Origin: an uncultured Armatimonadia bacterium | GTDB lineage: Bacteria; Armatimonadota; Zipacnadia; Zipacnadales; VGFC01 | DNA length: 64,000 nucleotides | Assembly (NCBI GenBank): GCA_964555935.1 | Contig: CAZKUN010000013.1 | Coordinates: forward strand, 4,539-68,538 | Direction of reading: 5' to 3' | In this document: one piece after another, positions 1,742-62,342 of the stretch | Layout of the letters: every line of letters begins with the position of its first letter | Position numbering within the stretch: position 1 is the stretch's first letter | Position numbers and translations under genes: made by a program | Notes under the pieces: model-generated | Databases searched by the model: none | What the model was told of the DNA's origin: nothing | Seen by the model: only the letters and a program-made list of their open reading frames with translations

Positions 1742-2842
1742 TTACAGGTCGACCATCCCGCCCGTCTCCAGGCTCTCATGCACGCCCGACGCGATCCGGG
1801 TCGCCTCCAGGCCATCGACGCCGTCTGGGTACGGGGCGAGTTCATCGATCTTCGCGCCCTCGAGCAGGACGTTCACGTTCTCGGCGAAGTCGGCAATGCT
1901 GATGATCCCGTAGCCATCGAAGACCTCGCGCCCCTGCTTGTCGACCCGCGGACGCAGGAAGCTCATGTTGTGGGTCATCATCCCGTCATTCTCAGAACAC
2001 GAGACCGTGCCACGATCCTGCGAGTCGCACTCGATCATGCCCTCCGTGCCCACCACCCGGATGCCCTGGTTTACGATCGCCTCGAAACCGTCCGGCAGGA
2101 TCCAGCTCGAATCGAACGTGACGCACGCGCCGTTGTCGAACTCGACCTTGGCCTGGATCGAGTCATACGTGTCCACGCCAAGACCCGATAGCTTGCCCTT
2201 GCAACCCGTGGCCCACACGCGCTTGCCATTGGCGTCCATGAGGAAGCGGGCGAGGTCGTAGAAGTGGATGCCCAGGAACCAGCCGGGCGAGCTGTTGCGG
2301 GCCCAGCCGGGGAACCAGTCGCGCGGGACCTCAATCCGGTCCTCCATGTGGGCGTAGCCGTATTGGATCTTCCCGATGTCGCCCTCGCTGATCTTGCGCT
2401 TCATCTCCAGATGGTACTCGTCGAAGCGCTTGTGGAAATCGACCTGCAGCAGGATGTCGTTCTTGGTCGCCGCGTCGATCATCTCCTGACATCCCGCGAC
2501 CGTCACGTCGAGCGGCTTCTCGCAGAGGATATGCACGCCCGCGTCGGCGCACGCAATGACGATATCCTTGTGGAGAGGATCGGGAGTCACGACGGTCACG
2601 CCGTCGAGGTTCTCCTTCTCCAGCATCTCCTTGTAGTCCGTATACACGCTCATCCCGAACTCGGCCTGACGTTCGGTGAGCAGCTCCTCGTTGATGTCAG
2701 CCGCCGCGACGAGTTCGGCCACGCCGAGGTAACCGAGCTGGCGGAACGTGCGAAGATGGTTGATACCAAATGTCCCAACGCCGATGACGCCTATGCGGGC
2801 TTGTGCCAAGGGTGAACCCTCCGTTTTCGGAAAGAAAGGCAT
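1742..2842 (-). CDS. Gfo/Idh/MocA-family NAD(P)-dependent oxidoreductase
   Basis: N-terminal Rossmann motif IGVIGVGTFG plus EKPL and C-terminal alpha/beta-domain motifs. The track ORF extends to 2938, but the internal ATG at 2842 (MPFFPKTEG...) removes the overlap with the upstream gene and precedes the GxGxxG. Confidence 0.85.
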   Translation of the reverse strand: MPFFPKTEGSPLAQARIGVIGVGTFGINHLRTFRQLGYLGVAELVAAADINEELLTERQAEFGMSVYTDYKEMLEKENLDGVTVVTPDPLHKDIVIACADAGVHILCEKPLDVTVAGCQEMIDAATKNDILLQVDFHKRFDEYHLEMKRKISEGDIGKIQYGYAHMEDRIEVPRDWFPGWARNSSPGWFLGIHFYDLARFLMDANGKRVWATGCKGKLSGLGVDTYDSIQAKVEFDNGACVTFDSSWILPDGFEAIVNQGIRVVGTEGMIECDSQDRGTVSCSENDGMMTHNMSFLRPRVDKQGREVFDGYGIISIADFAENVNVLLEGAKIDELAPYPDGVDGLEATRIASGVHESLETGGMVDL

Positions 2843-2876
2843 GGTCGCGGCTATTCGCGCCCACGCGCGATGACGA

Positions 2877-4247
2877 CTACGCTCCACACCAATTGACCAG
2901 TGACAGCGCGAGCGCCTTGGCGCCCGCGAGAATCTCATCGACGCTAATGCTCTCGCCGTCGGCGTGGGCCTGCCGGATGTCCGATGGCCCGAAGACGATG
3001 GTCGGGAGGTCGGCGAGCGCCTTGTACAGCCGCGCGTCGCAGCTCACGTTCCAGCCGTAGATGTCATTCTCGATCCCCGCGTTCTTGCAGGCCTCGTGCA
3101 CCGCGACCGGCAACGGGTGATCGGCTGGGATCTCGTACGCGTCGTTGTGCAGCTTGGGGAACTCCAGCGTGAAGTGCTCTTTCAGCCATTCGTCGTCCGT
3201 CGACATGATGGCGTCGAGCAGTTCCTTCCGGATGTCTGACATTCGCGCGTTGGGCAGGAAGCCGACGCCGCCCTCGAGCACGCACTTGTCCGAGACCATC
3301 GACGGCCAGCCGCCAGCCTCGATGGTGCCGATGCAGAGCTGGACGGGATTGTCGTAGCGCGCGAACAGCGGCTGGCCCTGGCTCGCGGCGATCAGACGCT
3401 CCTCATACTCGAGCATCAGCCGAATCGCTTCCATCATCTTCTCAATGGCGTTGACGCCCTCGTGGCGCCGGCCCATGTGAAGGCTCTTGCCGGTGGTGGT
3501 CGCGCGGAACCAGATCGCGCCGCGATTCGCGGGATGGATCTGCATATCCGTGCCTTCGAGGACGATCACGCCGTCAGCCTTGCAGCCCTGGCGGATCAGC
3601 GCCAACGCTCCGTTCCCGCCGACTTCCTCCTCGATCACAACCTGACACTCCACATCGCCCTTCAGTTGGATACCGAGGTCATCCAGCGCCCGCAGGGCCA
3701 GCAGCATCGTGACAATCTGCCCTTTGCAGTCGGTCGCGCCGCGGCCGATGATGCGATCGCCGTCGATGACGGGATCGAACGCCTTGTCCCAACCTCCGGC
3801 CGGCACGACGTCGCTGTGCGTCTGCAGGATCACGCTGCGTCCGCCGCCGGTCCCCTCGCGGCTGGCTACGAAGTTGTGGCGGCCGGCGTATGGTCCCTCG
3901 TTGTCGCCGTGGGAGTACTCCTCATCGTCAAATAGCGAGTCGGGGATCGGCCGATATTCGCCAGGCAATCCATGTTCCTTGAACAGCTCCATGACGCGGG
4001 CTTGAATGCCAGGCTCATTCCCTTGGATGCTGTCAAAGCGGATAAGCTCGGGAAGGGAACTGAAGATGAAATCGCGGTAACCGTCGATGGTCGTGGATAG
4101 CTGGGTCAGATCCGTATCCGCCACTTCGGGTGCGCTCCTCACGTGCTCGGGGCTGAAGACAGGTCCGAACGTTCCCCGCGCGAGGGGGCATTCCTTCCGA
4201 GGTCGGCTGATTATTGGCGAGGAAGCAGCGTTGGGAGGACTCAGCAT
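2877..4247 (-). CDS. M20-family metallopeptidase/deacylase (ArgE/DapE/acetylornithine deacetylase-like)
   Basis: HSDVVP, GRGATDCKGQ, VIEEEVGGNGA and GxIEAGG dimerisation-domain motifs are present. The exact start is uncertain; the first ~50 aa are non-conserved. Confidence 0.8.
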   Translation of the reverse strand: MLSPPNAASSPIISRPRKECPLARGTFGPVFSPEHVRSAPEVADTDLTQLSTTIDGYRDFIFSSLPELIRFDSIQGNEPGIQARVMELFKEHGLPGEYRPIPDSLFDDEEYSHGDNEGPYAGRHNFVASREGTGGGRSVILQTHSDVVPAGGWDKAFDPVIDGDRIIGRGATDCKGQIVTMLLALRALDDLGIQLKGDVECQVVIEEEVGGNGALALIRQGCKADGVIVLEGTDMQIHPANRGAIWFRATTTGKSLHMGRRHEGVNAIEKMMEAIRLMLEYEERLIAASQGQPLFARYDNPVQLCIGTIEAGGWPSMVSDKCVLEGGVGFLPNARMSDIRKELLDAIMSTDDEWLKEHFTLEFPKLHNDAYEIPADHPLPVAVHEACKNAGIENDIYGWNVSCDARLYKALADLPTIVFGPSDIRQAHADGESISVDEILAGAKALALSLVNWCGA

Positions 4248-4288: not shown

Positions 4289-5071
4289 TTGGCGGGGAAC
4301 GGACGAGCTGCGATGGACGAACGGCGACCCACTCTCTCGGTCATCATGCCCGCGCTCGATGAGGAGGGCACGATCGAGGAAGTGATTCGAGAGGTCTACA
4401 GGCTGCCCAACGTCCGCGAACTCATCGCGGTCGATGACGGCTCGAGCGACCGAACGCCAGAGATACTGGCGGCCTTGCGCGAGGAGTTTGGCGACCGGAT
4501 GCAGACTGTCCGGCACGAGACTCGCCAGGGCAAAGGCGCCGCCGTCCGCGCCGGCATCCCTCTGGCTCGCGGCGAATTGACCGTCATCCAAGACGCCGAC
4601 CTCGAGTACGATCCTCAGGACCTCCTGAAGCTCAGCGACCTGTTCGAGTCGCCGGACGTGGCGGTGGCATATGGGTCGCGGATCCTCGATGGGAGCGGGG
4701 CCACCTGCAGCAAGTGGTTCTACCTCGGCGGACGAGGGCTCTCGGTCATCACTAACATGCTCTATTGGGCAGGCATCACCGACGAGCCGACCTGCTACAA
4801 GATGTTCCGCACGAGCTTGCTGCAGGGCATCCGGCTTCGCTGCACGGGCTTTGAGTTCTGTCCGGAGGTCACGGCGATCGTCCGGCGGCTGGGGTTCAGG
4901 ATCCACGAACTCCCCATCACTTACCGGCCCCGTGGGTTCGAAGAGGGCAAGAAGATCCGCTTCACCGATGGCCTCGAGGCTGTCTGGACCCTCCTCAAGT
5001 TCCGCTTCATGCCCAGGGCCGCGTTCACTGCCGACCCCGACCTCATCGAGCAAGCGCGCCAAGGTCGGTAG
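4289..5071 (+). CDS. GT2-family glycosyltransferase (dolichol/polyprenol-phosphate mannosyl/glucosyltransferase-like, soluble)
   Basis: LSVIMPALDEEGTIEEVI...LIAVDDGSSDRT...VIQDADLEYDP are typical of DPM1-like GT2s, including the DxD motif. The gene is divergent from the M20 gene. The start may be the downstream ATG at 4313. Confidence 0.8.
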   Translation: MAGNGRAAMDERRPTLSVIMPALDEEGTIEEVIREVYRLPNVRELIAVDDGSSDRTPEILAALREEFGDRMQTVRHETRQGKGAAVRAGIPLARGELTVIQDADLEYDPQDLLKLSDLFESPDVAVAYGSRILDGSGATCSKWFYLGGRGLSVITNMLYWAGITDEPTCYKMFRTSLLQGIRLRCTGFEFCPEVTAIVRRLGFRIHELPITYRPRGFEEGKKIRFTDGLEAVWTLLKFRFMPRAAFTADPDLIEQARQGR

Positions 5072-5160
5072 GCTGGGGGGCCTCTCGTCGTTCAGAAGCT
5101 GGCGACCTCCTGGTCTCTGCCATCAGTTCCGTCACCAACCATCCCCTGCCGTCTTGCGCC

Positions 5161-5253
5161 AATCCCTGTAAGAGGGGCTTTAGCCCCGACGCCGTAGACG
5201 TCGGCACGGGCAGAAGCAACGGCGTCGGGGCTAAAGCCCCTCTTACAGGGATT
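5161..5253. repeat. 35-bp perfect inverted repeat (arms 5161..5195 and 5219..5253) flanking a 23-nt loop; each arm also contains the nested hairpin aggggc-ttta-gcccct
   Basis: Read directly: aatccctgtaagaggggctttagccccgacgccgt ... acggcgtcggggctaaagcccctcttacagggatt. It lies between convergent genes 4289..5071(+) and 5326..6765(-). It is related to the hairpin+CTACnnCGGCG repeat family seen elsewhere in the window. Confidence 0.8.
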
Positions 5254-5325
5254 AGGAAGATGGGCGCGCAATGCGATGGATGCGACACGTGGTTCTCGCC
5301 GAAGACGTTGCGCCCTGTCGTTTCT

Positions 5326-6765
5326 CTACGCCTCGCTGATGCGCTTCAGCATGGCCGTCGAGCGTGGCCACTCCAGCTCAACCCCCTGTCCCACCAGCCT
5401 CGCCCGCAGTTCGTCTGTGGGGACCTCGCGTAGTGACACCTTCCGGTCTCGCGCGATCGCTGCGGCTGTGCCGGCGGCTTGGCCAAGCTGCATCATCGTG
5501 CGGGAGAGCCGACAACTCGATGCCGCGAGAGAGCTGAACCCGGCGGCGCGACACGCGATCAGCAGGTTCTCGGTACGCTTGGGCAGCAGGCAGCGATACG
5601 GAATGCCGTACGGCTGCTTCAGCTCCCCGCAACCATGCCCATGCCCCCCGTGCGTGTCCATGGCATGATCGGCGATCGCGACGATGTCGTCGTCCGTCTG
5701 CCCGCTCAGCCCGGCGAGCAGGTCGTGTTGCGTGAGCACCTTCTCGCAGACGATCCGGCGTGTCTCTCGCACTCCGAGGGCCGGCGCGATCCAGCTCCGT
5801 CGATAGCGCTGAAACTCGGGGAAGTTGACCTGGCTGTGGTGCCAGTGGGCAATGGACCGGCGCAGGCACTCCGCGTAAGCCGCTTCCGGTCCGAGCCGCA
5901 GGAACTCCTCTCCCTCCATCGTGGGGAGCACGTTTACGTTCCAGTCGCCGCACGGGTACTGCGTGACGCTCGCCCCCGGGAAGGATGCCCGCCACCAGCA
6001 GTCCTTCGGGACATCGGGCGGCAGGGCCTCGACGGACGGCTGACTGGTTGGCGTGATCCGATATATCAGCGTGATTCCATTCACGCGGTCGGTGGCTTCC
6101 TCGGGCGCGCCGGGCTCGCCGAACGCGTCCCTCCCCTCCTGGCCCATCATCTCCCCGCATCCGCAGGCCATTGCCAGCAGTCCGTCGCCCGTCGCGTCCA
6201 CGTAGACGTCCGCCTGCAAGGCGTTGCCACCATCAAGTCGGAGGTGAGCGATGCGCCCATCGCGCATGTCGGCATCGGCGAGGCCCGTGTCCGTGGCGAC
6301 GTCACACCGCCCCGTCTCGTCGAGCAACGCATGGACAACGGCGCGGTAGACATCGGGCTCAAACCCGACGCCGTGCCAGTGTTCGCGGACGAAGGCCTCG
6401 TCCTCAGCCATAGACCGCGCGCCGTGGCGGAGCAAGCTGTCAACGTACGAGCGGGTGTAATCGACCACCGCCTCGCCGCCCGGGTAGCGCTCTTCGCCGG
6501 GCCCGGGGCAAAGGCAGTGTCGACCAATCGTGTAGATGCCGACGGCTTGGGGGATTGGTCTGAGAGCGCGGTAGATGTCGAGCGGGATACCCGTTCCGCC
6601 GACGCCCGGCTCCCAGACGCTCACGCCGGCGCGCGTGGCGGTGCCGCCGATGACGGGCGCTTTCTCGACGAGGCAGACCGCAAGGCCCTCTCGCGCCGCC
6701 GCGAGCGCCGCGCCGATGCCCCCGCTTCCAGCCCCGATGACAGCGACATCATACTGACGTAACAT
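5326..6765 (-). CDS. FAD-dependent oxidoreductase (FAD_oxidored/PF12831-like)
   Basis: N-terminal dinucleotide-binding motif DVAVIGAGSGGIGAAL...EKAPVIGG, in a 479-aa protein. Confidence 0.8.
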   Translation of the reverse strand: MLRQYDVAVIGAGSGGIGAALAAAREGLAVCLVEKAPVIGGTATRAGVSVWEPGVGGTGIPLDIYRALRPIPQAVGIYTIGRHCLCPGPGEERYPGGEAVVDYTRSYVDSLLRHGARSMAEDEAFVREHWHGVGFEPDVYRAVVHALLDETGRCDVATDTGLADADMRDGRIAHLRLDGGNALQADVYVDATGDGLLAMACGCGEMMGQEGRDAFGEPGAPEEATDRVNGITLIYRITPTSQPSVEALPPDVPKDCWWRASFPGASVTQYPCGDWNVNVLPTMEGEEFLRLGPEAAYAECLRRSIAHWHHSQVNFPEFQRYRRSWIAPALGVRETRRIVCEKVLTQHDLLAGLSGQTDDDIVAIADHAMDTHGGHGHGCGELKQPYGIPYRCLLPKRTENLLIACRAAGFSSLAASSCRLSRTMMQLGQAAGTAAAIARDRKVSLREVPTDELRARLVGQGVELEWPRSTAMLKRISEA

Positions 6766-8926: not shown

Positions 8927-11080
8927 TCACGAGGCCTGCAGAACGGCGATGAGCCGCAACATGCGTTCGCGCAGTTCGCGCATGCGGCGGACGGTCAGTT
9001 CCGGAGCGGGAGTGTACTCCCAGATGTAGCGATCATCGAAGGGGCGGTCCGCGAAGCTATTCACGGGGGACATCCGGCGCGCCTCGGCGAGTAACGCTCG
9101 GGCCTCGGACGGGGCGGCGCCCGAGCGAGACCGGCATAGGCGCTCAAGCGTGCGGAGACAGCGGTAGTCCTCGACGCCCTCGCGTCGCCCCTCCCAGCCG
9201 ATCGTGCCTACGGGTCCCTGCTCCGAGGGTGCCATGTACCACTGACTCCAATCCTCGGGCACGGCCCATGTCCCGTCGGCGTCGCGGGTTAGGGGTTCGG
9301 TCGAGTAGTAGGCCCACTGGCCGAGGCCGCGCAGGCCCGCGCTCCACGTGTAGAAACCACATGCGTATCGGTCAAAGCGCGGGCTCTGGCCACGCTGGTT
9401 GCAGTCGTATCCCCACAGCTCCTTCCCCATCTCCTCTGCGCGGGCGACCGTCGCCTCATCCACGTCCGAGACGCCCGCGATCCACACATCGTAGAGTTCG
9501 CCCACATGCTCGACGCCGTACTGGCCTATGGCGGTGACGGTCCGAGCCTCGGGAACCTGTGAGTAGAGCCGGCCGAATGTCTCCCTCACTCCGGCAACGC
9601 GTTCTGCGTTGTTGGGCTCATCAGCCACGTAGAAGAGCAGAGGAGGCCACCCGAGAAGCTTCCGCCGCTGCAAGAGGTCCCGGACGGTGCCTGGGTCGCG
9701 GAATGCTCCCCAGCCCGGAATGCCCCCGCCGGCAGACAGCAGTATCAGCGGTCTGTCTGGAGCCACGAGCCCCGCGGCCTGTGCGAGCGCCAGCCGTTGC
9801 CGCAGGCCAAGGTAATGCCGAGCGTCGGAGGGCTCGTACTGCATGTCGAGGTCCAGCTCGACCCTAATGTCGCCGCCGCGCGTCTCGCGTTCGGGCGCGA
9901 CGTAGAGACTGACCGATGTCATCCCGTGCTCCGCCATGTCGCGGTAGTAGAGCCTCTGTAGTCGAGGTGATGCCATTGGCTCCGTCAGGTACACGTCGGC
10001 GTAATACATGAAAAACGACACATCGGCGGGATCGAGTTTCACGCGGGGCACGGTGACGGCGATGCTGATGGGGAATCGCCCGCGTTCAGTTTCCGCCTCC
10101 AACTCCAGTCGCAACTCCGGCAGTGACCAGTCCGGGGGCACGCGCACCCGCACGGCGTGCTGCAGGACGTCGCCCCGCTTCACGTCCTCGCGCGCGTGGC
10201 CCTGCTCGGACTCAGCAGGCGGCAGAAGCAGCAGAGGGTAGCGGATGTGTGCCTGGCTGTTGAGCTCGCGCTTGCTGTAACCGATGCGAAACAGCGCGAC
10301 GTCGTCGGCACGTAGCCCCGGGGGCAGGCCTTGGACGCGAAGACGCGCGCCCTCAATATCCCGCAGCGCGTGAAGCATCACCATGACGGTTTCGCGCTCG
10401 CCTGGCGGGCAAGTGGCTCTGATCTCCCCGTCGGGGGCGAGACACTCCTCGCGCAGGGGCATGTACCGCGCCGAGGTGCCCTGCTCCAGTGGGCGCGTGA
10501 ATGCGAGGAAGCCGAGGTCCGATTCGAGCGTCGTCGGGTCGACCGGCGGGTTAACGACGGGACTTACGTCGCCGATGCGAACGGAGTCATCCTGAACGAA
10601 AGTGATCCCGTCCCAGTGCGACTCCGGAGCGTACGACAGGAGCCCGATCTTAACGACGCTGTCAGTCTCCCGCGTCCGGAAGTCAAGCTTGAGTTCGGTC
10701 CATTCGGGGAACCTGGCCCAGCCCGTGGATGCGACACAGATGCCGTTGAGCACGGCGTCATACGCGACGAGCGAGTGGTGCCCGGCGGCCGGCGTGCGGA
10801 TCCAGGCTCGCGCGCGATAGCCCGTGTTGGGCTTTACCGTGATGGGCTGGTAGGCCAGGGCATACGCCGAGCCCTCCTCACGCTGCAGGCGCAGCCACCG
10901 GTCGCCGTCGGTCGCGTCATCTGTCTCCACCGTCGCCGTGACGTTCGTCGTGACGGCCCAGCCCTCGGGCAAACCATCGGCAACGGCCTCGAAGGACGGG
11001 TTGCTCGGAAGATTCGGCGCCCCCTGAGCGACGCCCGCTGACGCGCACAACCAAGCGGTCACGGCTATACAGGTAGTCAT
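8927..11080 (-). CDS. Secreted protein: N-terminal CBM4_9-like beta-sandwich plus TIM-barrel glycoside-hydrolase-like domain (DUF4091/GH123-like?)
   Basis: Signal peptide MTTCIAVTAWLCASAGVAQG. NPSFE...GWAV resembles CBM4_9 entry motifs. YVADEP and W/Y-rich C-terminal segments suggest a glycosidase-like barrel. There is a 4-bp ATGA overlap with the upstream gene (operon). Confidence 0.6.
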   Translation of the reverse strand: MTTCIAVTAWLCASAGVAQGAPNLPSNPSFEAVADGLPEGWAVTTNVTATVETDDATDGDRWLRLQREEGSAYALAYQPITVKPNTGYRARAWIRTPAAGHHSLVAYDAVLNGICVASTGWARFPEWTELKLDFRTRETDSVVKIGLLSYAPESHWDGITFVQDDSVRIGDVSPVVNPPVDPTTLESDLGFLAFTRPLEQGTSARYMPLREECLAPDGEIRATCPPGERETVMVMLHALRDIEGARLRVQGLPPGLRADDVALFRIGYSKRELNSQAHIRYPLLLLPPAESEQGHAREDVKRGDVLQHAVRVRVPPDWSLPELRLELEAETERGRFPISIAVTVPRVKLDPADVSFFMYYADVYLTEPMASPRLQRLYYRDMAEHGMTSVSLYVAPERETRGGDIRVELDLDMQYEPSDARHYLGLRQRLALAQAAGLVAPDRPLILLSAGGGIPGWGAFRDPGTVRDLLQRRKLLGWPPLLFYVADEPNNAERVAGVRETFGRLYSQVPEARTVTAIGQYGVEHVGELYDVWIAGVSDVDEATVARAEEMGKELWGYDCNQRGQSPRFDRYACGFYTWSAGLRGLGQWAYYSTEPLTRDADGTWAVPEDWSQWYMAPSEQGPVGTIGWEGRREGVEDYRCLRTLERLCRSRSGAAPSEARALLAEARRMSPVNSFADRPFDDRYIWEYTPAPELTVRRMRELRERMLRLIAVLQAS

Positions 11081-13896
11081 TTCGCAGCCGTCCAGTGGAT
11101 GGTGTTGGGCATCCGGAAGGTTGGGGCGCCTGGTATGGTTCGATGGGGGTGGTGCGTGTGCGCGGCGCCACGTCCGCCCTCGATGAGATCGAAGCCGGGA
11201 CGGTGTCGCAGAGCGATCGTCGCGCGTCCGTCAGGATTGGCTTGGACGCCGTCGACGGCCAGCGCATAGGTAGTTCCGTCTCCGAACTCGACAGTTACGC
11301 GTTCGTTGGGCAATCCCTCGCGCGCGGGAATCTGCGTATCCACAACAAGCGCGTCCTCATCGTCGCCCGCCTCGACGCAGAGCACGTCCACCACGTTCCC
11401 CTCCGCCGCCGGGGGAGCCGTGATGCTCTGGCCAGCCATCGCGACCTCCGTTCCGTCTACGAGGACCATCTCGGTGGGCTCGTCATCGACCACACGCGCG
11501 AAGGCGTAGCGTCCGGTCACTCGCAGGTCGATATTGGCAGCACCTACGCTGACATCCGGACCCGTGGTTAGGGCGTGGTAGTCAGTGAAGCCTTCGCCGC
11601 GGCAGACGATCCCGACGGCACCCGCTCCGTCGCCTTCGAGCGGCAAGCTCTCGACGCTGGTGAGCCTCGGCGCGTCCCGGAACGGCTCATGGACGGCGGC
11701 GAAGACGCTCTGTAGATCGGAGCCCTCTCGGCGCACGAGCAGCGCGGGCATCGTGTGGTCGAAGACCGCCGCGTTGCTCTCCTTGGCCCGGCGGATCGAC
11801 GGCAGCGCCGCAGTGTAGACCGTCGTGTCGGGCTGGCCCAATAGCGAGGTGTGGAGGCCGCGAGACGGATCGTCCGCATACCGGAACGTCGCCGACCACG
11901 CCTGCGCGCCGTCCCCGCGAGCCACGTCCTCGAACAGGCCATAGAGGGTGTTGACGCCGTCGACGACCGGGTTCCAGCTCTGGGCGATTGTATCCGTCCA
12001 CGGCCGCCGCGCCCAGCCCGGTGGGAGAAGACCCGCCGCATGGGGTTGCATCGGCAGACTGGCCTCCAGCGTCTGGTCGTAGTCGGCGCTGCCGTGGAGG
12101 CACCAGTCGTGCTTGTCCCCGCCCGTGACGCGGAAGACATCGACCACGTAGCCTCCTCCGCCGGGCAACGCCACGAGCGCGAGCGCTCTGCGGTACAGGG
12201 ATGCGATGTCGGGGTAGGCGCCCTCCGACGAGGCCTCGCAGAAACGCAGGAGATCGCCGCACCGTGCCCACGCCATGAGCGCGCCATCCGCGGGAGGGTC
12301 GTCGCCCGACGAGCGCTGATTGGCCTCATTCACGACCACCGAATTATGAGCAACCGTGCTGCATGCGAAGGGCCGCAATATCGTGTGCGTGTAGCCCAAG
12401 TCGGGCAGGAGTTGTCGGCCCGCTCCGAAGAGAAGCAGATCGAGAGCATCGGCATGTTGGTGTCCGTAGCCGCCTGAGAAGTGGAGGTTTGCTTGCACGC
12501 CGCTCTCGCCCGCGCCGACCCCGAGGATGGCATGCCCCATGGCCCACGCAAGTGCCGTGCCGACCGGCCCCTCGCGCGCCTCGGGGATGGGGCGACCGAG
12601 GTTGGCGGCGGGCCAGGCATCGTGGATGGGCGTGACCTCGCCGTCCGGCAACCGCATTCGGTTCAGCGCGGCGATCGACTCCTCGAGCATCGGGACATCA
12701 CTCGCGCCCGAGAATCTGTCGATGTGCAGACCGTCGATGGGGTTGACGTACCCCTCCGGGTCTGAGTAGCCCTTGAGCGGTCCTTCGACGCAGCTCTGCA
12801 GAGAGTAGACCGTTTGGGAGTGATACGATGGGGAGGCCTCGCGCCAGATGCCGTCCGGGTAGAACTGCCGCTCGAGGATCCCGTCCACGCGTCGCAGAGC
12901 GTCGTGGACGAACTCCGGCTCGCCGATGACCCGCCCGATCACCGCCAGCCCTCGTATGAGCGAGCCGTCCATGTTCCCCAGGTAGATCGGGAAGGTGCGC
13001 GTGAAGTTGGCGGTCGCCCGGTGGAATTCTTCAATGTTACGGCGGACATCGGTGCCCAGTTCATCTGAGAGAGCGTCAACCGCCTCGCTGTCGGCCACCC
13101 GGTCGTACGTGCGAGCGAGAGCGGGCGACATCTCCGAGTAGAACCAGTTGTCCAGGCCATCGCCGCGCAAGGTCGAGCAGTACGGGTATGGCGTGCTGTA
13201 TCCTGGGAGGTCTTTCGCCATGCCCGGCACGGGCTGCAATCCGTTGGGCGGTCTCGGCAGCGGCTGGGTGTCGAAGACCTTCATCGCGAACATCGACCAG
13301 TTCTCAATCCCATGCGGGCTGTAGTGCGGATACACCTCCGCCAGCCGGTTCAGGATGATCCCCGCCTGCCGCGCGTGCGGCTCGTCTCCCGTCGCGTGGT
13401 ATATCTTGGCCAGCGCGCCGGCCATGGACTCCATGTATCTCTTCTTGCAGTTCTCGACACGCATCTGCATGAAGTGCTTATAGCCGTCCTCGCCCTCCCA
13501 GTACCGGTAGACGTGCTCCTGTCCGGTGGAGTCGGTGACGCGCGTCTCCTTGTCCAGCGGGTACTCCTCGTTGGGGAAGACCATGTTGCAGAACTTGCAC
13601 TCGATCTGGTCCGGCTCCTCCGGCGACCAGAGCCAGTGGTAGGTATCCGAGACGTTGCCATCATCGCAGTTCGGGCAGAGGATGTGATAGAAGGTCGTTC
13701 GCGGAACGATGAACTCGTCGATCTGCTCGCGTCCGAGGGACATGACGTGCGTGGCCTGCTCTCGGAGCGAATCCACTTCGGCGTCAGTCAACTCCACCGG
13801 GAAGACGGGGTGTTTGACCGGATAGGCCATCGCGGAGGAACAGATCACCACGCTCATTAGGAGCGCCAGGCCACCGAGCATGTTCGCGTGGAGCAT
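11077..13896 (-). CDS. Heparinase II/III-like polysaccharide lyase (alpha/alpha toroid + beta-sandwich), secreted
   Basis: Signal peptide present. Hallmark GGYGHQHADALDLLLFGAGRQLLPDLGYTHT...HNSVVV matches the Hepar_II_III motif H.H.D......D.GY....HNS. There is an unusual N-terminal CxxC...CxxC insert. Confidence 0.8.
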   Translation of the reverse strand: MLHANMLGGLALLMSVVICSSAMAYPVKHPVFPVELTDAEVDSLREQATHVMSLGREQIDEFIVPRTTFYHILCPNCDDGNVSDTYHWLWSPEEPDQIECKFCNMVFPNEEYPLDKETRVTDSTGQEHVYRYWEGEDGYKHFMQMRVENCKKRYMESMAGALAKIYHATGDEPHARQAGIILNRLAEVYPHYSPHGIENWSMFAMKVFDTQPLPRPPNGLQPVPGMAKDLPGYSTPYPYCSTLRGDGLDNWFYSEMSPALARTYDRVADSEAVDALSDELGTDVRRNIEEFHRATANFTRTFPIYLGNMDGSLIRGLAVIGRVIGEPEFVHDALRRVDGILERQFYPDGIWREASPSYHSQTVYSLQSCVEGPLKGYSDPEGYVNPIDGLHIDRFSGASDVPMLEESIAALNRMRLPDGEVTPIHDAWPAANLGRPIPEAREGPVGTALAWAMGHAILGVGAGESGVQANLHFSGGYGHQHADALDLLLFGAGRQLLPDLGYTHTILRPFACSTVAHNSVVVNEANQRSSGDDPPADGALMAWARCGDLLRFCEASSEGAYPDIASLYRRALALVALPGGGGYVVDVFRVTGGDKHDWCLHGSADYDQTLEASLPMQPHAAGLLPPGWARRPWTDTIAQSWNPVVDGVNTLYGLFEDVARGDGAQAWSATFRYADDPSRGLHTSLLGQPDTTVYTAALPSIRRAKESNAAVFDHTMPALLVRREGSDLQSVFAAVHEPFRDAPRLTSVESLPLEGDGAGAVGIVCRGEGFTDYHALTTGPDVSVGAANIDLRVTGRYAFARVVDDEPTEMVLVDGTEVAMAGQSITAPPAAEGNVVDVLCVEAGDDEDALVVDTQIPAREGLPNERVTVEFGDGTTYALAVDGVQANPDGRATIALRHRPGFDLIEGGRGAAHTHHPHRTIPGAPTFRMPNTIHWTAAK

Positions 13897-14082
13897 GTAG
13901 GACCTCCAACGGCCGTCGATGCGGTAGTGGATGTCTGAGATCAGCTCCGCCCGCCACCCTCGTCCCCACCCGCTTCGCCCAGCGGCGTGGCTCCACCTCG
14001 CCTTGGCCGTCCAGCGGGCGAGGCGTGAGCGAGGAACCGGTGGCGGGAACGCGGAACATGCATGCCCATGCCGTCCGTGTCC

Positions 14083-14160
14083 GCGGGTCGCCCGACCCGC
14101 GAGAACTCACCCGGGATTGGGCGTGCGGGTCGGGCGACCCGCAGGCACGAACGACCGGGG
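14083..14160. promoter_or_regulatory. Pair of 14-bp palindromes GGGTC-N4-GACCC (gggtcgcccgaccc and gggtcgggcgaccc) ~25 bp apart, upstream of the amidohydrolase operon; the second is followed by gcaggcacgaacgac
   Basis: Read directly in the 280-bp intergenic region. The same palindrome+tail is found at 51483..51512 and 62290..62330. This is a candidate operator or a REP-like element. Confidence 0.5.
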
Positions 14161-14176
14161 ATGGGGAGTTACGCCC

Positions 14177-15772
14177 ATGAGCCTGAGGCTGTTCGACGCC
14201 CACTGCTACCTCGGCCGGTTCAAGCACCTCGACGAGCGCTACTTCCACGCGCGTGAAGACTTGCTCGCGGAGATGGATCACTTTGGCATTGCCGAGGCGC
14301 TCGTTTGCGACACGCTATCGCGCGAGTTGGACCCTCGAGCCGGTAACCCTCGCATCGTGGATCTGTGCAGGGACGAGCCCCGCCTCCACCCGTCGTGGGC
14401 GCTGGCCCCGCCCGTGCAGTCGCTGCCGTTCCCGCTTGACGAGTTGCCCTCGGCCATGGCCGACGCGGACGTGCGGGCTGTCCGGCTGTTCCCCGGCCAC
14501 CTGGAATTCACGCTCGACGAGTGGTGCGTCGGTCCAATCCTGGAAGTGATGCAAGACATCCGCGTGCCGGTCCTCATCGACCCAACGCCGGCCCTCAAGG
14601 CGGCGGGGCGAGACCTCACCGACTGGGACGCGATGGTCCGGCTGTGCAAGGCATTCCCGGATCTACCGATCATCGCCGCCGAACAGCGGTGGTACTGGCG
14701 CGATCGCACGTTCTACCCCGCGCTGGAGGCCTGCGAGAATCTTCACCTCGAGCTGAGCGCGTTCTGGATGTTCCGCGGCATTGAGTTCGTCTGCCGGGAA
14801 TATGGGGCGCATCGATTGCTGTTTGGCACGAGGCTGCCGGTCCGAGACGCGGGGGCAACGGTGGCGCAACTCCAATACGCAGAGATCTCCGACGAGGAGA
14901 AGCAAGCCATCGCGGGGGACAATCTGCGCCAGATGCTCGACCTCGATCCCCAGCCGATCGAGCAGGTCGCGCCGGACCCCGGCCTCGGCACGTGGTACTC
15001 GGCAGTCCGGGCGGCCCAAGAACCCTTCGCGGGCGAGACGCTGGTCGACATCCACGCGCACATCGGCCCGGGCTCACCGTACTTTCTCCCGGATTCCGAA
15101 CCGGACCAACTCGTCCGCCAGATGGACCGACACGGCATCAGCAAGATGGTGAGCTTCGCCTTCGCCGGGATGAACGCGGACTGGGCCTGGGGCAACGACT
15201 TCGCGCACCAGGCGGCCTGCGATCACCCCGGCCGGATCCTGCCGCTCGCCCAAGTGAATCTGTGGGATGATGCGGAGATGACTCGCGAGATGGAGCGCTG
15301 CTGCGACGAATTCGGCTTCTGGGGCGTGAAGCTGCACCCTTGGTGGAACGAATACCCCGAGACGGGCGATCATGTCAGGCGGTGCTGCGAGTTCGTCAAC
15401 GATCGAAAGCTCATGTTGCTCAACCACCACTGGGGCCCGCCCACCGCCCTCGACGAGATCGCCAAGGACTGTCCGAACGCTCAGCTCATCGTCGGACACT
15501 TGGCTCTGGATGCCGAGTACGCGCGGGTGATCAATGAGAACGACAACGTGCACATCTGCACGTGCCTGCCGGTCCTGCGAGGCGAGGTCGAGCAAGCGGT
15601 GAAGCTGATCGACACGAGCAAAATCATGTTTGGCTCGGATGTCCCCGACCTGCCCATTCCCATCGGCTTCGGATCGATTCTCTACGCGAGGATCGATGAC
15701 GAGGCGAAGCGCGCCATCATGGGCGTAAACGCTCAGCGACTACTGGAGAAGATCACATGCGCGAAAACATGA
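14177..15772 (+). CDS. Tandem-fused double amidohydrolase-2 (PF04909-like metal-dependent TIM-barrel hydrolase; sugar-lactonase/decarboxylase family)
   Basis: Two repeats each begin with a metal-binding motif (LFDAHCYLG and LVDIHAHIGPGSPYF) and carry C-terminal HxxW/D motifs. The start is reassigned to the ATG at 14177 (MSLRLFDAH), which has a GGAG RBS. The upstream part of track ORF 13931 overlaps repeat elements. Confidence 0.75.
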   Translation: MSLRLFDAHCYLGRFKHLDERYFHAREDLLAEMDHFGIAEALVCDTLSRELDPRAGNPRIVDLCRDEPRLHPSWALAPPVQSLPFPLDELPSAMADADVRAVRLFPGHLEFTLDEWCVGPILEVMQDIRVPVLIDPTPALKAAGRDLTDWDAMVRLCKAFPDLPIIAAEQRWYWRDRTFYPALEACENLHLELSAFWMFRGIEFVCREYGAHRLLFGTRLPVRDAGATVAQLQYAEISDEEKQAIAGDNLRQMLDLDPQPIEQVAPDPGLGTWYSAVRAAQEPFAGETLVDIHAHIGPGSPYFLPDSEPDQLVRQMDRHGISKMVSFAFAGMNADWAWGNDFAHQAACDHPGRILPLAQVNLWDDAEMTREMERCCDEFGFWGVKLHPWWNEYPETGDHVRRCCEFVNDRKLMLLNHHWGPPTALDEIAKDCPNAQLIVGHLALDAEYARVINENDNVHICTCLPVLRGEVEQAVKLIDTSKIMFGSDVPDLPIPIGFGSILYARIDDEAKRAIMGVNAQRLLEKITCAKT

Positions 15773-22515: not shown

Positions 22516-22550
22516 CCGCGTAGCGACGGGGCTCCCGCCCCGTCGAATCC
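22516..22550 (-). repeat. Copy of dispersed hairpin repeat (ggattcgacggggcgggagccccgtcgctacgcgg, reverse orientation)
   Basis: Matches the element at 27977..28010 over 35 bp with no mismatch. Confidence 0.8.
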
Positions 22551-27976: not shown

Positions 27977-28025
27977 GATTCGACGGGGCGGGAGCCCCGT
28001 CGCTACGCGGCTACGGCGGGCAGCG
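27977..28025 (+). repeat. Copy of dispersed hairpin repeat (ggggcgggagcccc hairpin + tcgctacgcggctacggcgg tail)
   Basis: Identical over 35 bp to the inverted copy at 22516..22550. The tail resembles copies at 31546 and 62246. Confidence 0.8.
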
Positions 28026-31523: not shown

Positions 31524-31545
31524 GGGTGGGTGGACGGCGACGGCC

Positions 31546-31585
31546 GACGGGCTGGAAGCCCGTCGCTACGCGACGGCGGACGGCG
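31546..31585 (+). repeat. Copy of dispersed hairpin repeat (gacgggctggaagcccgtcgctacgcgacggcggacggcgg)
   Basis: Same architecture as 27977..28025 (hairpin + tcgctacgcg tail). It lies in the GH16-GRE intergenic region, upstream of the reassigned GRE start. Confidence 0.75.
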
Positions 31586-33764: not shown

Positions 33765-33797
33765 GGGCGCGATAAATCGCGCCCCTACGATTGGCGG
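33765..33797 (+). repeat. Copy of dispersed hairpin repeat (gggcgcgat-aaa-tcgcgccc + ctacgattggcgg)
   Basis: Hairpin + CTAC..GGCGG tail. It overlaps the stop codon of the convergent sulfatase gene. Confidence 0.7.
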
Positions 33798-39728: not shown

Positions 39729-39949
39729 GGTGGTCCTCTCAGTGTGATGGTGGCATTATGCCACTGCACACATATTCACTGGCGATTAATCGCTTTTACA
39801 GGGTTAATTAGTGAAATATATGTTGACATGGCCAGTCGCTGCGAGTAGTATTATACAAGTAGCGCATATTCTGTCAATAAATATTACTAAGTTGGATCTG
39901 TGAGCGTCAGGACGGGCGGACAGGTCCACGGGCCAGAGCGAGGGCGCGC
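39729..39949. promoter_or_regulatory. AT-rich intergenic island with sigma70-like promoter (TTGACA 39823..39828, 17-bp spacer, TAGTAT 39846..39851) and 12-bp perfect palindrome GCGATTAATCGC (39782..39793)
   Basis: Read directly. GC is far lower than the surrounding ~67% GC context. The island separates divergent genes 39045..39728(-) and 39950..(+). Confidence 0.55.
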
Positions 39950-51454: not shown

Positions 51455-51480
51455 GTGGTCGCCCTCCCGGGCGAACGGCG

Positions 51481-51543
51481 TCGGATCAGGAGATCCGACC
51501 TACGAACGGCGTCGGGGTCGAAACCCCTCCTACAACGGCGGCG
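51481..51543 (+). repeat. Tandem pair of dispersed hairpin repeats: ggatc-agga-gatcc + cctacgaacggcg, then ggggtcgaaacccc + tcctacaacggcggcg
   Basis: Read directly. It lies in the divergent intergenic region between 50195..51454(-) and 51640..(+). Confidence 0.75.
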
Positions 51544-51639
51544 TTTCTCCGCAGCGGTTGCGATGCCCTTGGGGAAAGGTGCGGCGGTGACATACAGCCA
51601 ACAGCCAGAGACCGAACGTTCGTATTGGGGAGGCCTCGG

Positions 51640-59272: not shown

Positions 59273-59342
59273 GGGTGGTCTCCTTGCGTCGGCGGGTGCC
59301 TTCGGCATTGACAGGCGAGGAAACTCGCCGAGTTTCCGCGAC

Positions 59343-62201
59343 CTACGACGGCGAGAGCGTGTAGCTCTGGCCTGGCTTGGTTGCGAACTCGATGACGTTC
59401 TTGTCGACGGATTCGGCGGCGAGTTTTGGGCGGGCATCGAGGCGAAGGGCCGAATGCGCGCGGACGCGGCACGTGTTGCCAATCGAGGAGTGGACAATGG
59501 CGTGGGTGAGCTTGCCGTCGGCCCACTCGATATCGACCTCGAAGCCGCCGCGAGCGCGGAGCCCGGTCACGTGTCCGGTCGGCCAGGCTGCGGGGAGCGC
59601 GGGCAGCAGGTCGATCTCGCCATCGTGGCTCTGAATGAGCATCTCGGCGATGGCCGCGCAACCGCCGAAGTTGCCATCGATCTGGAAGGGCGGGTGGTTG
59701 TCGAACATGTTCGGCAGCGTTGACTTGGCGAGCAGCGCCTGGAGGTTCTCGTGGCACGTCTCGCCATCGCGTAAGCGCGCGAAGAAGTTGGTGATCCAAG
59801 CCCGGCTCCAGCCGGTGTGGCCGCCGCCGTGGGCGAGGCGGTGATCGAGGGTGGCGCGCGCGGCGTCGGCGAGTTCGGGCGTGCTGAAGACTGTGATCCG
59901 CCGACCCGGGTGCAGGCCGTAGAGGTGGGAGATGTGGCGATGGCCCGGTTCGGGTTCCTCGAACTCCTCGGGCCACTCCTGGAGGCGGCCGTCGCTGCCG
60001 ATCTTCATCGGCGTCAGGCGCGCGCGGGCGGCCTTGACCTCCATGCGGAAGTCGGCGTCGGTGTTCAACGCCTCGCTCGCCTCGATGCAGTTCTGGAAGA
60101 CGTCATCGATGATCTGATGGTCCATCGTCGCGCCCATGACGACATTCGCCACCTGCCCGTCGGGCGTGCGGAACGAGTTCTCTGGCGAACTCGACGGCCC
60201 GCTGACGAGCATCCCCGTGCGCGGGTCCTCAACGAGGTAATCGAGGAAGAAGAGGGCGGCTTCCTTGATGATCGGATAGCCCGTCTCCGCCAGGAACTCG
60301 CGGTCTCCGCTGTACTCGTAGTGCTCCCAGAGGTGACGCGTGCACCAGGCCGCGCTGAAGGGCCAGAGGCCATACCCCGTAGCGCCGATGGAGCTGGCGT
60401 ACCACCAGGCATCAGTGGTGTGATGCGCCACGAACCCGCGGCAGCCGTAGATCTTCCGGGCGGCCTCGCGACCACGTGGGAGGAGGTTCTCAGTGAGCTG
60501 GATGAAGGGCTCGTGGCACTCGGTGAGGTTGGCTACCTCGGCGGGCCAGTAGTTCATCTGGATGTTGATGTTGATGTGGTAATCAGCGTTCCAGGGCGGG
60601 CTCATCCCGGCTTCCCACAGCCCCTGGAGATTGGCGGGCATGCATCCGGGTCGCGAGGAGCTGATCAGCAGGTAGCGGCCGAACTGGAAGTACTGCTCGA
60701 GGAGTTGGGTATCGACAGCGCCTTGCTTCACGGCGGCGAGACGTTCGTCCGTGGGGAGGTTGGTGGCTTCGGTAGCGCCGAGGTCGAGATCGACCCGGCG
60801 GAAGAGCCGCTGGTGCTCCTTGACATGCCGCTTGCGGAGTTGGGCGTAGCCCTTGGCGGATGCGTCGGCCATGCGCTGGATGCACAGCTCGCGCGGGTCA
60901 TCGCCGAAGTAGCTTGTCGCGGCCACGATGAGGATTGTGGCCGAATCGGCGCCATCGATCCGCAGACCATCGTCCGCGGGGCTGACCGTGCCGCCATTGG
61001 TTCTCACCTTCAGCCGGGCTTCGTATCGGACGCCCTTCCCGTCGCCCGCGTGGCCGTACATGATGAGTCCGCCAGATCCATCGGACTCGACGGTCACGTC
61101 CCGCGAGCGAGAGAGGCCGACCGTGCATGATGCTGGACCGGAGAGGCGCGCCACTAAGACGTCATCAGCGGCGCTGGAGAAGACCTCGCGCGAGAGCCTC
61201 TCGCCATCCGCGCTGTAGGCAGTGGCCGCGATGGCGGAATCGAGGTCGAGATCGCGGCGGTAGTCGACGACGGTCCGGGGTCGGTCGAACGTCAGCGTGA
61301 GGTCGCCGAGGGCCTGGTACGTGTGGAGGCCGGGATCGATTCGCGTGCCCATGAGCTTCCCTTGGGCCAGGCGCTGACCCTCGACATAGTTGCCCTCGAA
61401 GAGCAACCGGCGGACCTCGTCGAGGTTACCGAGCGCCTCCGGGTTCTCGCGCTGGAAGGGCTCGCCGGTCCAGAGGCTGTCTTCGTTGAGTTGGATGAGT
61501 TCCCGATCAACACCGCCGAAGACCATCGCCCCGAGACGCCCGTTGCCAACCGGCAGAGCCTCGATCCACTCGTTGGCCGGCCGACGGTACCAGAGCGTGA
61601 GATCGCCCTCTGGCGGCGCGGCCTCGCCCGCGTGCTGGGTCACCTTGCCGCCGAGGTCGCTTGCTGCCGTGCATTGCTCAGCCAAAGCCTTGCCCTCCGG
61701 GCTGTCGGGGTCCGCGGGCCAGTCGGCCCACGTCAGGTCGTCGCCGGCGCGGAGTTGCCAGGAACCGCTCAGGCTCATAGATCCCTTGGCGCAGCCGAGG
61801 GAAAGCTCCGGGCCGGTCATCCCGCCGTTTCCGCCGTTGTCAAAGACGCGGACGGCGATGAGGTTGTAGTCGCCCCAGCGGACGGCACCCGGCGGAACTT
61901 GGCATTCGCGACGGGTCTGCCACGCGGTGCGGGGCTCGGGCGGGAGCTGGCCGGTGGCGCCGATCTTCTCACCGTTGAAGAACGACTCGTCGCAATCGTC
62001 GATGGCGCCGAGTTTCAGCGTCAGAGTCTCGCCGCGCCACTCCTTAGGGACTTCCACGAAGCATCGGTACCATGCGAAGCCGTCGTGCTGGCCCAGTCCG
62101 ACGCGGCCCCAGTCGGCGGGCACGGGGACGGTGTCCCAGGAGTTCTGGGCAAGGCTGACCGACGCGATGAGAATGGCGAGAGAGGTCGTGATGAGGCGCA
62201 T
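59343..62201 (-). CDS. Glycoside hydrolase family 95 (alpha-L-fucosidase/alpha-L-galactosidase type) with extra N-terminal ~170-aa sugar-binding domain
   Basis: Signal peptide present. GH95 N-terminal signature [28 protein letters not shown]...IQLNEDSLW. (alpha/alpha)6 catalytic region with NADYHININ. Confidence 0.85.
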
Positions 62202-62245
62202 GTTCCCTGAGGTCGTGTAGGTGGTGGACAGTCCCGGCCGGCGAC

Positions 62246-62330
62246 GGCGGGGCGTGATGAATCACGCCCCTACAACGGCGGACGACGCGGGTCAGGAGAC
62301 CCGCAGGCACGGACGACTACGGCGACTACA
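62246..62330 (+). repeat. Tandem pair of dispersed hairpin repeats: ggggcgtga-tgaa-tcacgcccc + tacaacggcgg, then gggtc-agga-gaccc + gcaggcacggacgactacggcgactac
   Basis: Read directly. Its composition parallels 51481..51543 and 14120..14160. Confidence 0.75.
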
Positions 62331-62342
62331 ATCGCGCGGGCG

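Follow-up and report, generated by a model that had tools for sequence, protein, structure and literature searches.

Palindromes upstream of CAZyme genes in an Armatimonadota genome very probably belong to a REP/BIME-type family of dispersed repeats

A short palindrome, GGRTCNNNNGAYCC (GGRTC-N4-GAYCC), recurs in a 64-kb window (the whole stretch of DNA that was analysed) of an Armatimonadota genome, close to the starts of genes for an amidohydrolase, a β-helix protein and a GH95 enzyme, and this raises the question of whether it is an operator, bound by a dimeric transcription factor and common to the genes of a CAZyme regulon, or a member of a REP-like family of repeats, the two explanations offered by the first-pass annotation. 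An exact search of the window, which has a G+C content of 65%, finds four copies, at 14085-14098, 14127-14140, 51483-51496 and 62289-62302. Dinucleotide-preserving shuffles give an expectation of 0.78, and four copies were reached in one of 100 shuffles, so the recurrence itself is borne out, with the end coordinates first assigned to the 51483 and 62289 copies corrected by 1-2 bases. All four palindromes sit at the centre of longer perfect stems (CGCGGGTC/GACCCGCG, TGCGGGTC/GACCCGCA, GTCGGATC/GATCCGAC and GCGGGTC/GACCCGC, respectively), in which the bases beyond the GGRTC core vary among the four copies yet remain complementary. The similar tail that had been described on three copies is also present: CGCAGGCACGRACGAC follows the 14127 and 62289 copies directly with 0 mismatches and, with 3 mismatches, accompanies the 14085 copy on the other strand, which makes the two copies at 14.1 kb an inverted pair. 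The 51483 copy is followed by CTACGAACGGCG, a tail other than that of these three.

The gene context, taken from a map of the window based on GC3 periodicity and open reading frames and checked with Pfam, is less uniform than the original description implied. The 14.1-kb pair lies in a divergent intergenic region (13897-14176) between a heparinase II/III-like gene (11077-13896, minus strand) on the left and an Amidohydro_2 gene (14177-15772, plus strand) on the right, the ATG of the latter at 14177 being 79 bp downstream of the 14085 copy and 37 bp downstream of the 14127 copy. The 51483 copy is likewise in a divergent region (51455-51624), where the start of a GNAT-like acyltransferase gene (50195-51454, minus strand) is about 29 bp away and the gene for the β-helix protein, which begins at 51625 on the plus strand, is 129-160 bp away. 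The last copy lies between two genes of the same strand (region 62202-62342), 88 bp upstream of the start of the GH95 gene (59343-62201, minus strand) and 41 bp downstream of the stop of a URO-D-like gene (62343-63437, minus strand). A position within ~100 bp upstream of a gene start thus holds at 14.1 kb and for GH95 but not for the β-helix gene, and to call the sites ‘upstream of CAZyme genes’ is only partly accurate, because the 62.3-kb element is 3′ of the URO-D-like gene as well as 5′ of GH95.

Three of the four palindromes are the hairpins of units of ~44 bp, RACGGCGC-GGGTC-NGGN-GACCC-GCAGGCACGRACGRC, hereafter the GGGTC type. In general build, a unit is a short hairpin rich in G+C, whose stem of 7-8 bp is closed by a 4-nt NGGN loop; on one side it has a conserved single-stranded tail, which is AGGCACGRACGRC for the GGGTC type and CTACRACGGCG for the sister types, and on the opposite side a flank that is ACGGCG-like. 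A stem of 7-8 bp and a 4-nt loop are found in all four window copies, and 69 units from outside the window, whose consensus is RACGGCGC-GGGTC-NGGN-GACCC-GCAGGCACGGAC-GGCRACGG, have an invariant stem and an NGGN loop. The second base of the loop is G in 68 of the 69 distinct external units under a search pattern that left the loop free, which makes the GGGTC unit strand-asymmetric. The tag strand reads CGTGCCT-GCGGGTC in 69/69, that is, GTGC and CT where GTAG would be.

A covariance model (R1) trained only on the 69 external units, with none from the window, recovers the left arm of the 14.1-kb pair at 14065..14108 on the minus strand (hairpin CGCGGGTC-GGGC-GACCCGCG at 14082-14101 and tail GACACGGACGGC in the minus-strand reading; 49.9 bits, E 1.7e-11) and the right arm at 14117..14160 on the plus strand (hairpin TGCGGGTC-GGGC-GACCCGCA at 14124-14143, tail GGCACGAACGAC; 54.6 bits, E 8e-13), which stops 16 nt short of the amidohydrolase ATG. 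The third unit, GCGGGTC-AGGA-GACCCGC-AGGCACGGACGAC at 62279..62322 on the plus strand, gives the highest score of the three (61.7 bits, E 1e-14) and is antisense to both of its flanking genes, URO-D-like and GH95. Judged by these R1 scores of 50-62 bits (E about 1e-14 to 1e-11), the three window units are members of the external family. The interval 51472-51515 (plus strand) reaches 14.1 bits under the same model (E about 0.09), a score that comes from its flanks alone; by its sequence the 51483 copy is a sister type, with a different hairpin and a CTAC (GTAG) tag. The four palindromes therefore exist as described but do not constitute one common inverted repeat, three being GGGTC-type units and the 51483 copy belonging to the sister type.

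The two arms at 14.1 kb form a head-to-head inverted doublet (14065..14160, without strand assignment) with the tags outside and a ~22-bp spacer, and the whole folds into one long hairpin (-41.8 kcal/mol, z = -4.9). An ORF from 13931 runs through this doublet, such that the amidohydrolase ORF can be extended by 82 codons, yielding a spurious peptide ‘...RVARPARTHPGLGVRVGRPAGTNDRG...’. The arrangement resembles that of a REPIN, defined as two inverted REPs plus a spacer and mobilised by a RAYT (Bertels & Rainey 2011, PMC3116915); within the set of four palindromes it is found only in the 14.1-kb pair, the 51.5- and 62.3-kb copies not being doublets. Head-to-head doublets of 67-90 bp number 13 in all, the one in the window and 12 in other contigs, and in two of the latter (L068 and L070) the spacer is similar to that of the window doublet. 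An inverted partner is present for 21 of 83 copies and absent for 62.

The sister units are the more numerous class in the window, which holds three GGGTC units and about ten units of sister sub-families. The unit that contains the third palindrome (51480..51511, plus strand; GTCGGATC-AGGA-GATCCGAC-CTACGAACGGCG), in which GTAG directly abuts GTCGGATC, is of a type whose hairpin and CTACGAG tail also occur in another contig (L066), and it stands in tandem with a second GTAG-tagged unit that has a 2-nt spacer (51514..51541, plus strand; GGGGT-CGAA-ACCCC-TC-CTACAACGGCGG). A further GTAG-tagged unit at 62249..62281 (plus strand; GGGGCGTGA-TGAA-TCACGCCCC-TACAACGGCGG) abuts the GGGTC unit at 62279..62322, so forming a mosaic. 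Two tagged units that are 30/30 identical lie at 22516..22545 (minus strand; CGACGGGGC-GGGA-GCCCCGTCG-CTACGCGG), the first of them intergenic with two same-strand genes around it, and at 27981..28010 (plus strand), and there is another at 31545..31576 (plus strand; CGACGGGCT-GGA-AGCCCGTCG-CTACGCGACGG). The tagged hairpin at 33765..33790 (plus strand; GGGCGCGA-TAAA-TCGCGCCC-CTACGA) lies between convergent genes, and its CTA supplies the TAG stop for the gene at 33785-35041 on the minus strand. Similarly, at 59319..59353 (plus strand) a hairpin, GGAAACTC-GCC-GAGTTTCC, is followed by GCGAC and CTACGACGGCG, and the GH95 gene takes its TAG stop from the CTA of this unit. A true GTAG tag is carried by the sister units at 51480, 51514, 62249, 27981, 22516, 31545 and 33765. 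An inverted doublet of another kind occupies a convergent intergenic region at 5164..5250 (without strand assignment), its units being ACGGCGTC-GGGGC-TAAA-GCCCC-TCTTACAGGG with both arms an exact match; it is the core of a conserved element of ~210 bp that folds at -118 kcal/mol (z = -7.8), with homologous copies in two other contigs (L057 and L086). In total the window has 20 tagged hairpins against 6.0 (maximum 11) in Markov shuffles, and 12 of the 20 are in the small intergenic fraction.

In 32 kb of intergenic DNA there are 142 stems of 7 bp or more, compared with 77 in 165 kb of coding DNA. When the tag (TAC[AG]N1-2CGGC) was used as the anchor, 21 of 97 tags had a perfect hairpin of 6 bp or more directly before them, against 0.85 in shuffles, and these 21 hairpins have eight different stems. 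What is conserved is the structure and its tag, not one palindromic sequence. This tag-anchored test was used in place of stem covariation computed on alignments that had been selected for hairpins, which was dropped as circular. Covariation between the loops of the two arms as proof of the long hairpin was dropped too, loops being lineage-specific; in three doublets from the MAG with mixed loops, the loops are mismatched between the arms. Units of different kinds are also found joined: in the Armatimonadetes MAG the GGGTC unit forms mosaics with hairpins such as GTCGGAGC-AGC-GCTCCGAC-CTACG..., GTCGGCTC-TGGT-GAGCCGAC-CCACG... and CCCCTCTCC-TGAAG-GGAGAGGGG, the hairpin types being parted by ACGGC-rich spacers, and one contig (L013) carries 16 tandem units of a 41-bp repeat.

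An exact scan for GGGTC-N4-GACCCGCRGRCACGRAC over one genome per species gave 27 matches at 26 loci, all of them from three MAGs, two of which are titled Armatimonadetes bacterium, one of these having matches on 20 contigs. A metagenome scan added 69 further loci. Once redundancy is removed, the exact unit occupies about 89 sites in MAGs of Armatimonadota and in metagenome contigs, some of the metagenome copies being strain variants and hence non-independent. The affiliation of the window agrees, in that proteins encoded in it have identical counterparts at NCBI under the name Armatimonadota bacterium and the best named homologue of its amidohydrolase is from Armatimonadetes. The protein encoded at 1742-2938 (minus strand) has no database record. 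Upstream of more distant amidohydrolase homologues, at 60-65% amino acid identity (L033, L034 and L037), there is no such palindrome, a weak test given that the gene order differs, and the ~21 kb surrounding L033, like the ~21 kb surrounding L037, contain no tagged hairpin. These unrelated, palindrome-free upstream regions, together with the lack of tagged hairpins around L033 and L037, indicate that the family is lineage-restricted.

The case for an operator, through which a dimeric transcription factor would co-regulate CAZyme and sulfatase genes, has to be set against this distribution. It draws on the perfect 5-4-5 palindrome of the core, on the position of all four window copies in intergenic regions that hold at least one gene start, and on three adjacent genes whose products act on polysaccharides. 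With genes in the loci called by our own GC3-based caller, checked against the window, 83 of the 89 non-redundant copies are outside called genes, and the six inside called ORFs are mostly in open-ended ORFs at contig edges. Where both flanking genes could be called (n=56), 18 copies are in convergent, 30 in same-strand and 8 in divergent regions, the background in the same loci being 45, 189 and 47, respectively; this is an enrichment of convergent regions (18/56 versus 16%, p = 0.002 by count and 6e-5 by length), and divergent regions are under-used for their length (p = 0.01). Of the gene ends that adjoin the 89 copies, 82 are 3′ and 57 are 5′, with median distances of 70 bp and 149 bp, respectively, and between same-strand genes 15 copies are in sense and 15 in antisense orientation, i.e. 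without bias. We thus see a multi-copy family dispersed through several related genomes, nearly all copies of which are outside called genes, with a bias to gene 3′ ends and convergent regions, no orientation bias and no link to gene function.

The first-pass annotation had itself taken a frequency at 3′ ends equal to that at gene starts as telling against a regulatory site, and the 3′ ends are in fact the commoner of the two, in company with convergent regions, where there is no promoter. Nor is there the expected co-occurrence with CAZyme genes. The 49 non-redundant genes preceded on the 5′ side by a copy represent 81 unrelated Pfam families and include few CAZymes (only GH106 and GH38 among the 25 families listed); among them are pyruvate formate-lyase-like enzymes, TPP enzymes, ornithine carbamoyltransferase, MnmA, SurE, NifU, aminotransferases, DDE transposases and a Mu portal protein. 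The conserved unit of ~44 bp, asymmetric in its one-sided tail and NGGN loop, is a misfit with the symmetric site of a dimer; the tandem arrays and mosaics also speak against an operator, and of the four supposed sites the 51483 copy is a different unit. The palindrome-free upstream regions of the amidohydrolase homologues count against an operator too, if weakly. We regard a shared operator as very improbable. The units precede the amidohydrolase, β-helix and GH95 genes because intergenic space lies there in a window rich in CAZymes, not by reason of a common regulator. Membership of a REP-like family, which had been put forward as the alternative, gains support from the R1 match of the three GGGTC units; the 51483 copy belongs to a sister type.

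Comparison of related contigs shows that copies stay in place. Closer relatives share copies at the same sites, with flanks that are 88% (L072/L087) and 91% (L029/L097) identical, contigs with an identical amidohydrolase have an intergenic region that is 100% identical, and in strain variants of the window organism (99.7-99.96% identity) the 62.3-kb units are unchanged. In a more diverged pair, L018 and L073, orthologous genes that are ~72% identical are each followed, right after the stop codon, by a unit that is 37/39 identical, beyond which the arrays differ, one continuing with a second direct unit and the other with an inverted partner. The same-site copies with 88-91% identical flanks would fit long vertical persistence, without showing movement, and among the relatives and strain variants compared no empty site (presence/absence pair) was recovered.

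Persistence and position could be read as the mark of structural RNA or DNA elements that the host retains, themselves non-mobile and multiplied by slippage and recombination. As examples one may think of mRNA 3′-end stabilisers, Rho-dependent or unconventional terminators, and sites for nucleoid proteins or gyrase. The bias to 3′ ends, the copies at orthologous sites in relatives, the 37/39-identical unit after much less similar orthologues (suggestive of constraint or homogenisation), the tandem arrays (suggestive of slippage) and the failure to find a transposase in 705 kb would all accord with such elements. We nevertheless consider it unlikely that they account for the family, since orientation relative to transcription is even, no T-run follows the hairpins, copies occur in divergent regions too and, in one case, on a predicted viral contig, and the presence of the identical unit beside unrelated genes in different genomes calls for some copying mechanism. 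A retained role is in any case compatible with REP-type repeats, because known REPs have such secondary roles. Still less credible, and the least probable of the explanations we weighed, is that the units are MITEs derived from a DDE-type insertion sequence, with the doublet arms as terminal inverted repeats. The 67-90 bp head-to-head doublets have the form that this predicts, and DDE transposase genes (IS1380-like in L012, IS4-like in L028) lie 340-580 bp from copies in one MAG, but the 62 of 83 copies without an inverted partner are single, the two insertion sequences are of different families and neither has the unit on both sides, and each arm forms a hairpin by itself and has an asymmetric tag, which is the build of REPs and not of typical terminal inverted repeats.

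Several other identities were considered and set aside. Intrinsic (Rho-independent) termination was rejected on the grounds that the three regions contain no terminator-like site, there is no T-run, and orientation is 15 to 15; scans of these three palindrome-bearing intergenic regions with sigma-70 and terminator consensus sequences gave nothing. A 12/12 match to the sigma-70 consensus is seen in an AT-rich divergent region at 39.8 kb, quite unlike the regions that bear the repeats. Rfam at gathering thresholds has no match in the whole window, and there is no tRNA; permissive Rfam scans of 5050-5340 and 13890-14190 returned only sub-threshold matches to miRNA precursors, which are generic long hairpins, and were discounted.

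We conclude that the palindromes are very probably REP/BIME-type dispersed repeats of the Armatimonadota genome, presumed to be non-autonomous and mobilised by a RAYT-like HUH/Y1 transposase. In such a scheme the units would spread as non-autonomous elements, the hairpin and tag being recognised on single-stranded DNA by a RAYT-like HUH/Y1 transposase encoded elsewhere in the genome, and units in place would be co-transcribed and may incidentally stabilise or attenuate neighbouring mRNAs, like other REPs. No RAYT or Y1 transposase was detected in the window and fetched loci (~705 kb) by tblastn with E. coli RayT or by scans for HUH...Y motifs, the single match of the HUH...Y(x)NP/Q regular-expression scans being implausible, and a large-database search with E. 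coli RayT gave matches only in Enterobacteriaceae, which are uninformative for Armatimonadota. RAYTs are usually single-copy per genome, and their absence from 705 kb is therefore a weak negative. There is a small chance that the GGGTC units are instead a REP-like system without a canonical RAYT, copied by an unrecognised enzyme or mechanism, or recruited as a host-protein site at 3′ ends. The features on which that idea is founded are the non-GTAG tag (GTGC-CT), the near-invariant loop G and the ACGGC-rich tails.

Among known systems the closest is the GTAG super-family of REPs, which comprises the E. coli REP/BIME, the Pseudomonas REPs and families of Opitutus terrae and Rhodopirellula baltica (Di Nocera, De Gregorio & Rocco 2013, PMC3733652). 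Units of 20-40 bp with a stem of 6-13 bp and a short loop are characteristic of this super-family. GTAG REPs prefer convergent and unidirectional regions, form head-to-head dimers and clusters, coexist as several families and have tags that supply TAG stops (PMC3733652). The Armatimonadota units resemble them in their short length, in a G+C-rich stem of 6-9 bp closed by a short loop, in a conserved unpaired tag on one side, in the coexistence of several families with different stems in one genome, as singletons, head-to-head dimers and clusters, and in their extragenic location near 3′ ends with a preference for convergent and unidirectional regions. Here, too, the tag supplies TAG stops (at 33785 and 59343), and the sister units carry the true GTAG tag. 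The differences are that the tail has a greater length and abounds in ACGGC-like motifs, which also form the spacers of the mosaics, that no flanking RAYT (‘REPtron’) was seen in ~705 kb, and that the three GGGTC units have GTGC plus CT, which is absent from the listed degenerate tags (GYAG, GYRG, GTRG, GTMG and GTGG; PMC3733652). The GGGTC type accordingly lacks the tag that a strict definition requires, GTGC-CT standing where GTAG would be; in behaviour it is like the true GTAG-tagged units, among which it is interspersed.

With REPINs the 14.1-kb element shares its two inverted units, its ~22-bp spacer and its folding into one long hairpin, and as in REPINs the doublets recur in other contigs, some with a similar spacer, and same-site persistence is seen in relatives; what sets the present family apart is that doublets are a minority (21/83), that direct tandem arrays and mixed-family mosaics are common and that no RAYT was found in ~705 kb. 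The CGTC-tagged REPs, whose stems start with A/T pairs and which have a CGTC tag beside the stem, a CCA tail and no dedicated transposase (PMC3733652), are similar in being palindromic extragenic repeats without a known associated transposase, but the GGGTC unit has neither an A/T-starting stem nor a CGTC tag nor a CCA tail.

The survey that defined these classes covers eight phyla, with Armatimonadota neither among them nor named in its main text (PMC3733652), and a literature search found no paper linking Armatimonadetes with REP or RAYT. The present repeats extend the tagged REP/REPIN type to Armatimonadota and document a sub-family with a non-GTAG tag. They open no new regulatory mechanism, and are of a kind that can be mistaken for regulatory motifs in CAZyme loci. 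For annotation they matter in that such repeats inflate ORF calls and create false N-terminal extensions, as at the amidohydrolase. Families like this one may serve as strain markers and offer a route to the cognate HUH transposase.

In the window, the TAG stop codons of two minus-strand genes, 33785-35041 and the GH95 gene 59343-62201, coincide with the CTA of a REP tag (33785-33787 and 59343-59345, respectively), and the tag as a source of TAG stop codons has already been described for the GTAG REPs of other organisms (Di Nocera et al. 2013, PMC3733652). At the amidohydrolase gene the longest ORF starts 82 codons further 5', and this extension (13931-14176, encoding '...RVARPARTHPGLGVRVGRPAGTNDRG...') runs through the inverted pair of GGGTC units, the ~44-bp hairpins with a one-sided tail; the amidohydrolase is 531 aa long here, as against 543-571 aa annotated for database homologues. 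The GTAG-tagged hairpin unit CGACGGGGC-GGGA-GCCCCGTCG-CTACGCGG is present twice, at 22516-22545 (minus strand) and 27981-28010 (plus strand); the two copies are identical at 30/30 positions, opposite in orientation and 5.4 kb apart.

A further ~210-bp non-coding element (5093-5300) is located between the convergent GT2 and FAD oxidoreductase genes, its core a perfect inverted doublet with arms at 5164-5195 and 5219-5250. Its predicted fold has an energy of -118 kcal/mol (z = -7.8), and intergenic counterparts of 71-76% identity are present in two metagenome contigs (L057 1040-1214 and L086 4299-4527), the L086 copy carrying a 20-bp insertion. It may represent a MITE-like element, a REPIN-like element or a structured RNA.

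Elsewhere in the window, the divergent intergenic region 39729-39949 is AT-rich within a 65% G+C genome, and contains a perfect minus-strand sigma-70 consensus, TTGACA-16-TATAAT (39877-39850), faced by a plus-strand site matching at 10/12 positions. A plus-strand ORF of ~570 aa (26250-27954) has a third-position G+C (GC3) clearly below that of its neighbours and was rejected by our GC3-based gene caller; it may be a recent acquisition.

In other contigs the repeats are found in arrays, on a predicted viral contig and close to transposase genes. On an Armatimonadetes MAG contig (L013 92-707) the 41-bp unit GACGGAGC-RGC-GCTCCGTC-CTACGACGGCGATGGTGACGGT is repeated 16 times in a head-to-tail array, with a period that is no multiple of three; a GGGTC unit directly follows the array. 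Two GGGTC units are present on the 22-kb contig IMGVR_UViG_3300025030_000440 (L111/L112, the same contig as Ga0209518_1001760, L067/L077), viral by IMG/VR classification. As a separate observation, one of the genes with a GGGTC copy on their 5' side encodes a Mu-type portal protein. In the Armatimonadetes MAG an IS1380-like (DDE_Tnp_1_4, L012 371-1663) and an IS4-like (L028 1928-3148) transposase gene lie 340-580 bp from REP clusters; insertion sequences may target, or accumulate in, REP-rich DNA.

Comparison of two further loci, L018 (2900-3200) and L073 (10200-10560), reveals a REP unit identical at 37/39 positions, in each case no more than 25 bp past the stop codon of orthologous genes that are themselves about 72% identical; the remaining intergenic DNA cannot be aligned. 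This suggests that the unit has been homogenised, is under constraint or has inserted into one site more than once.
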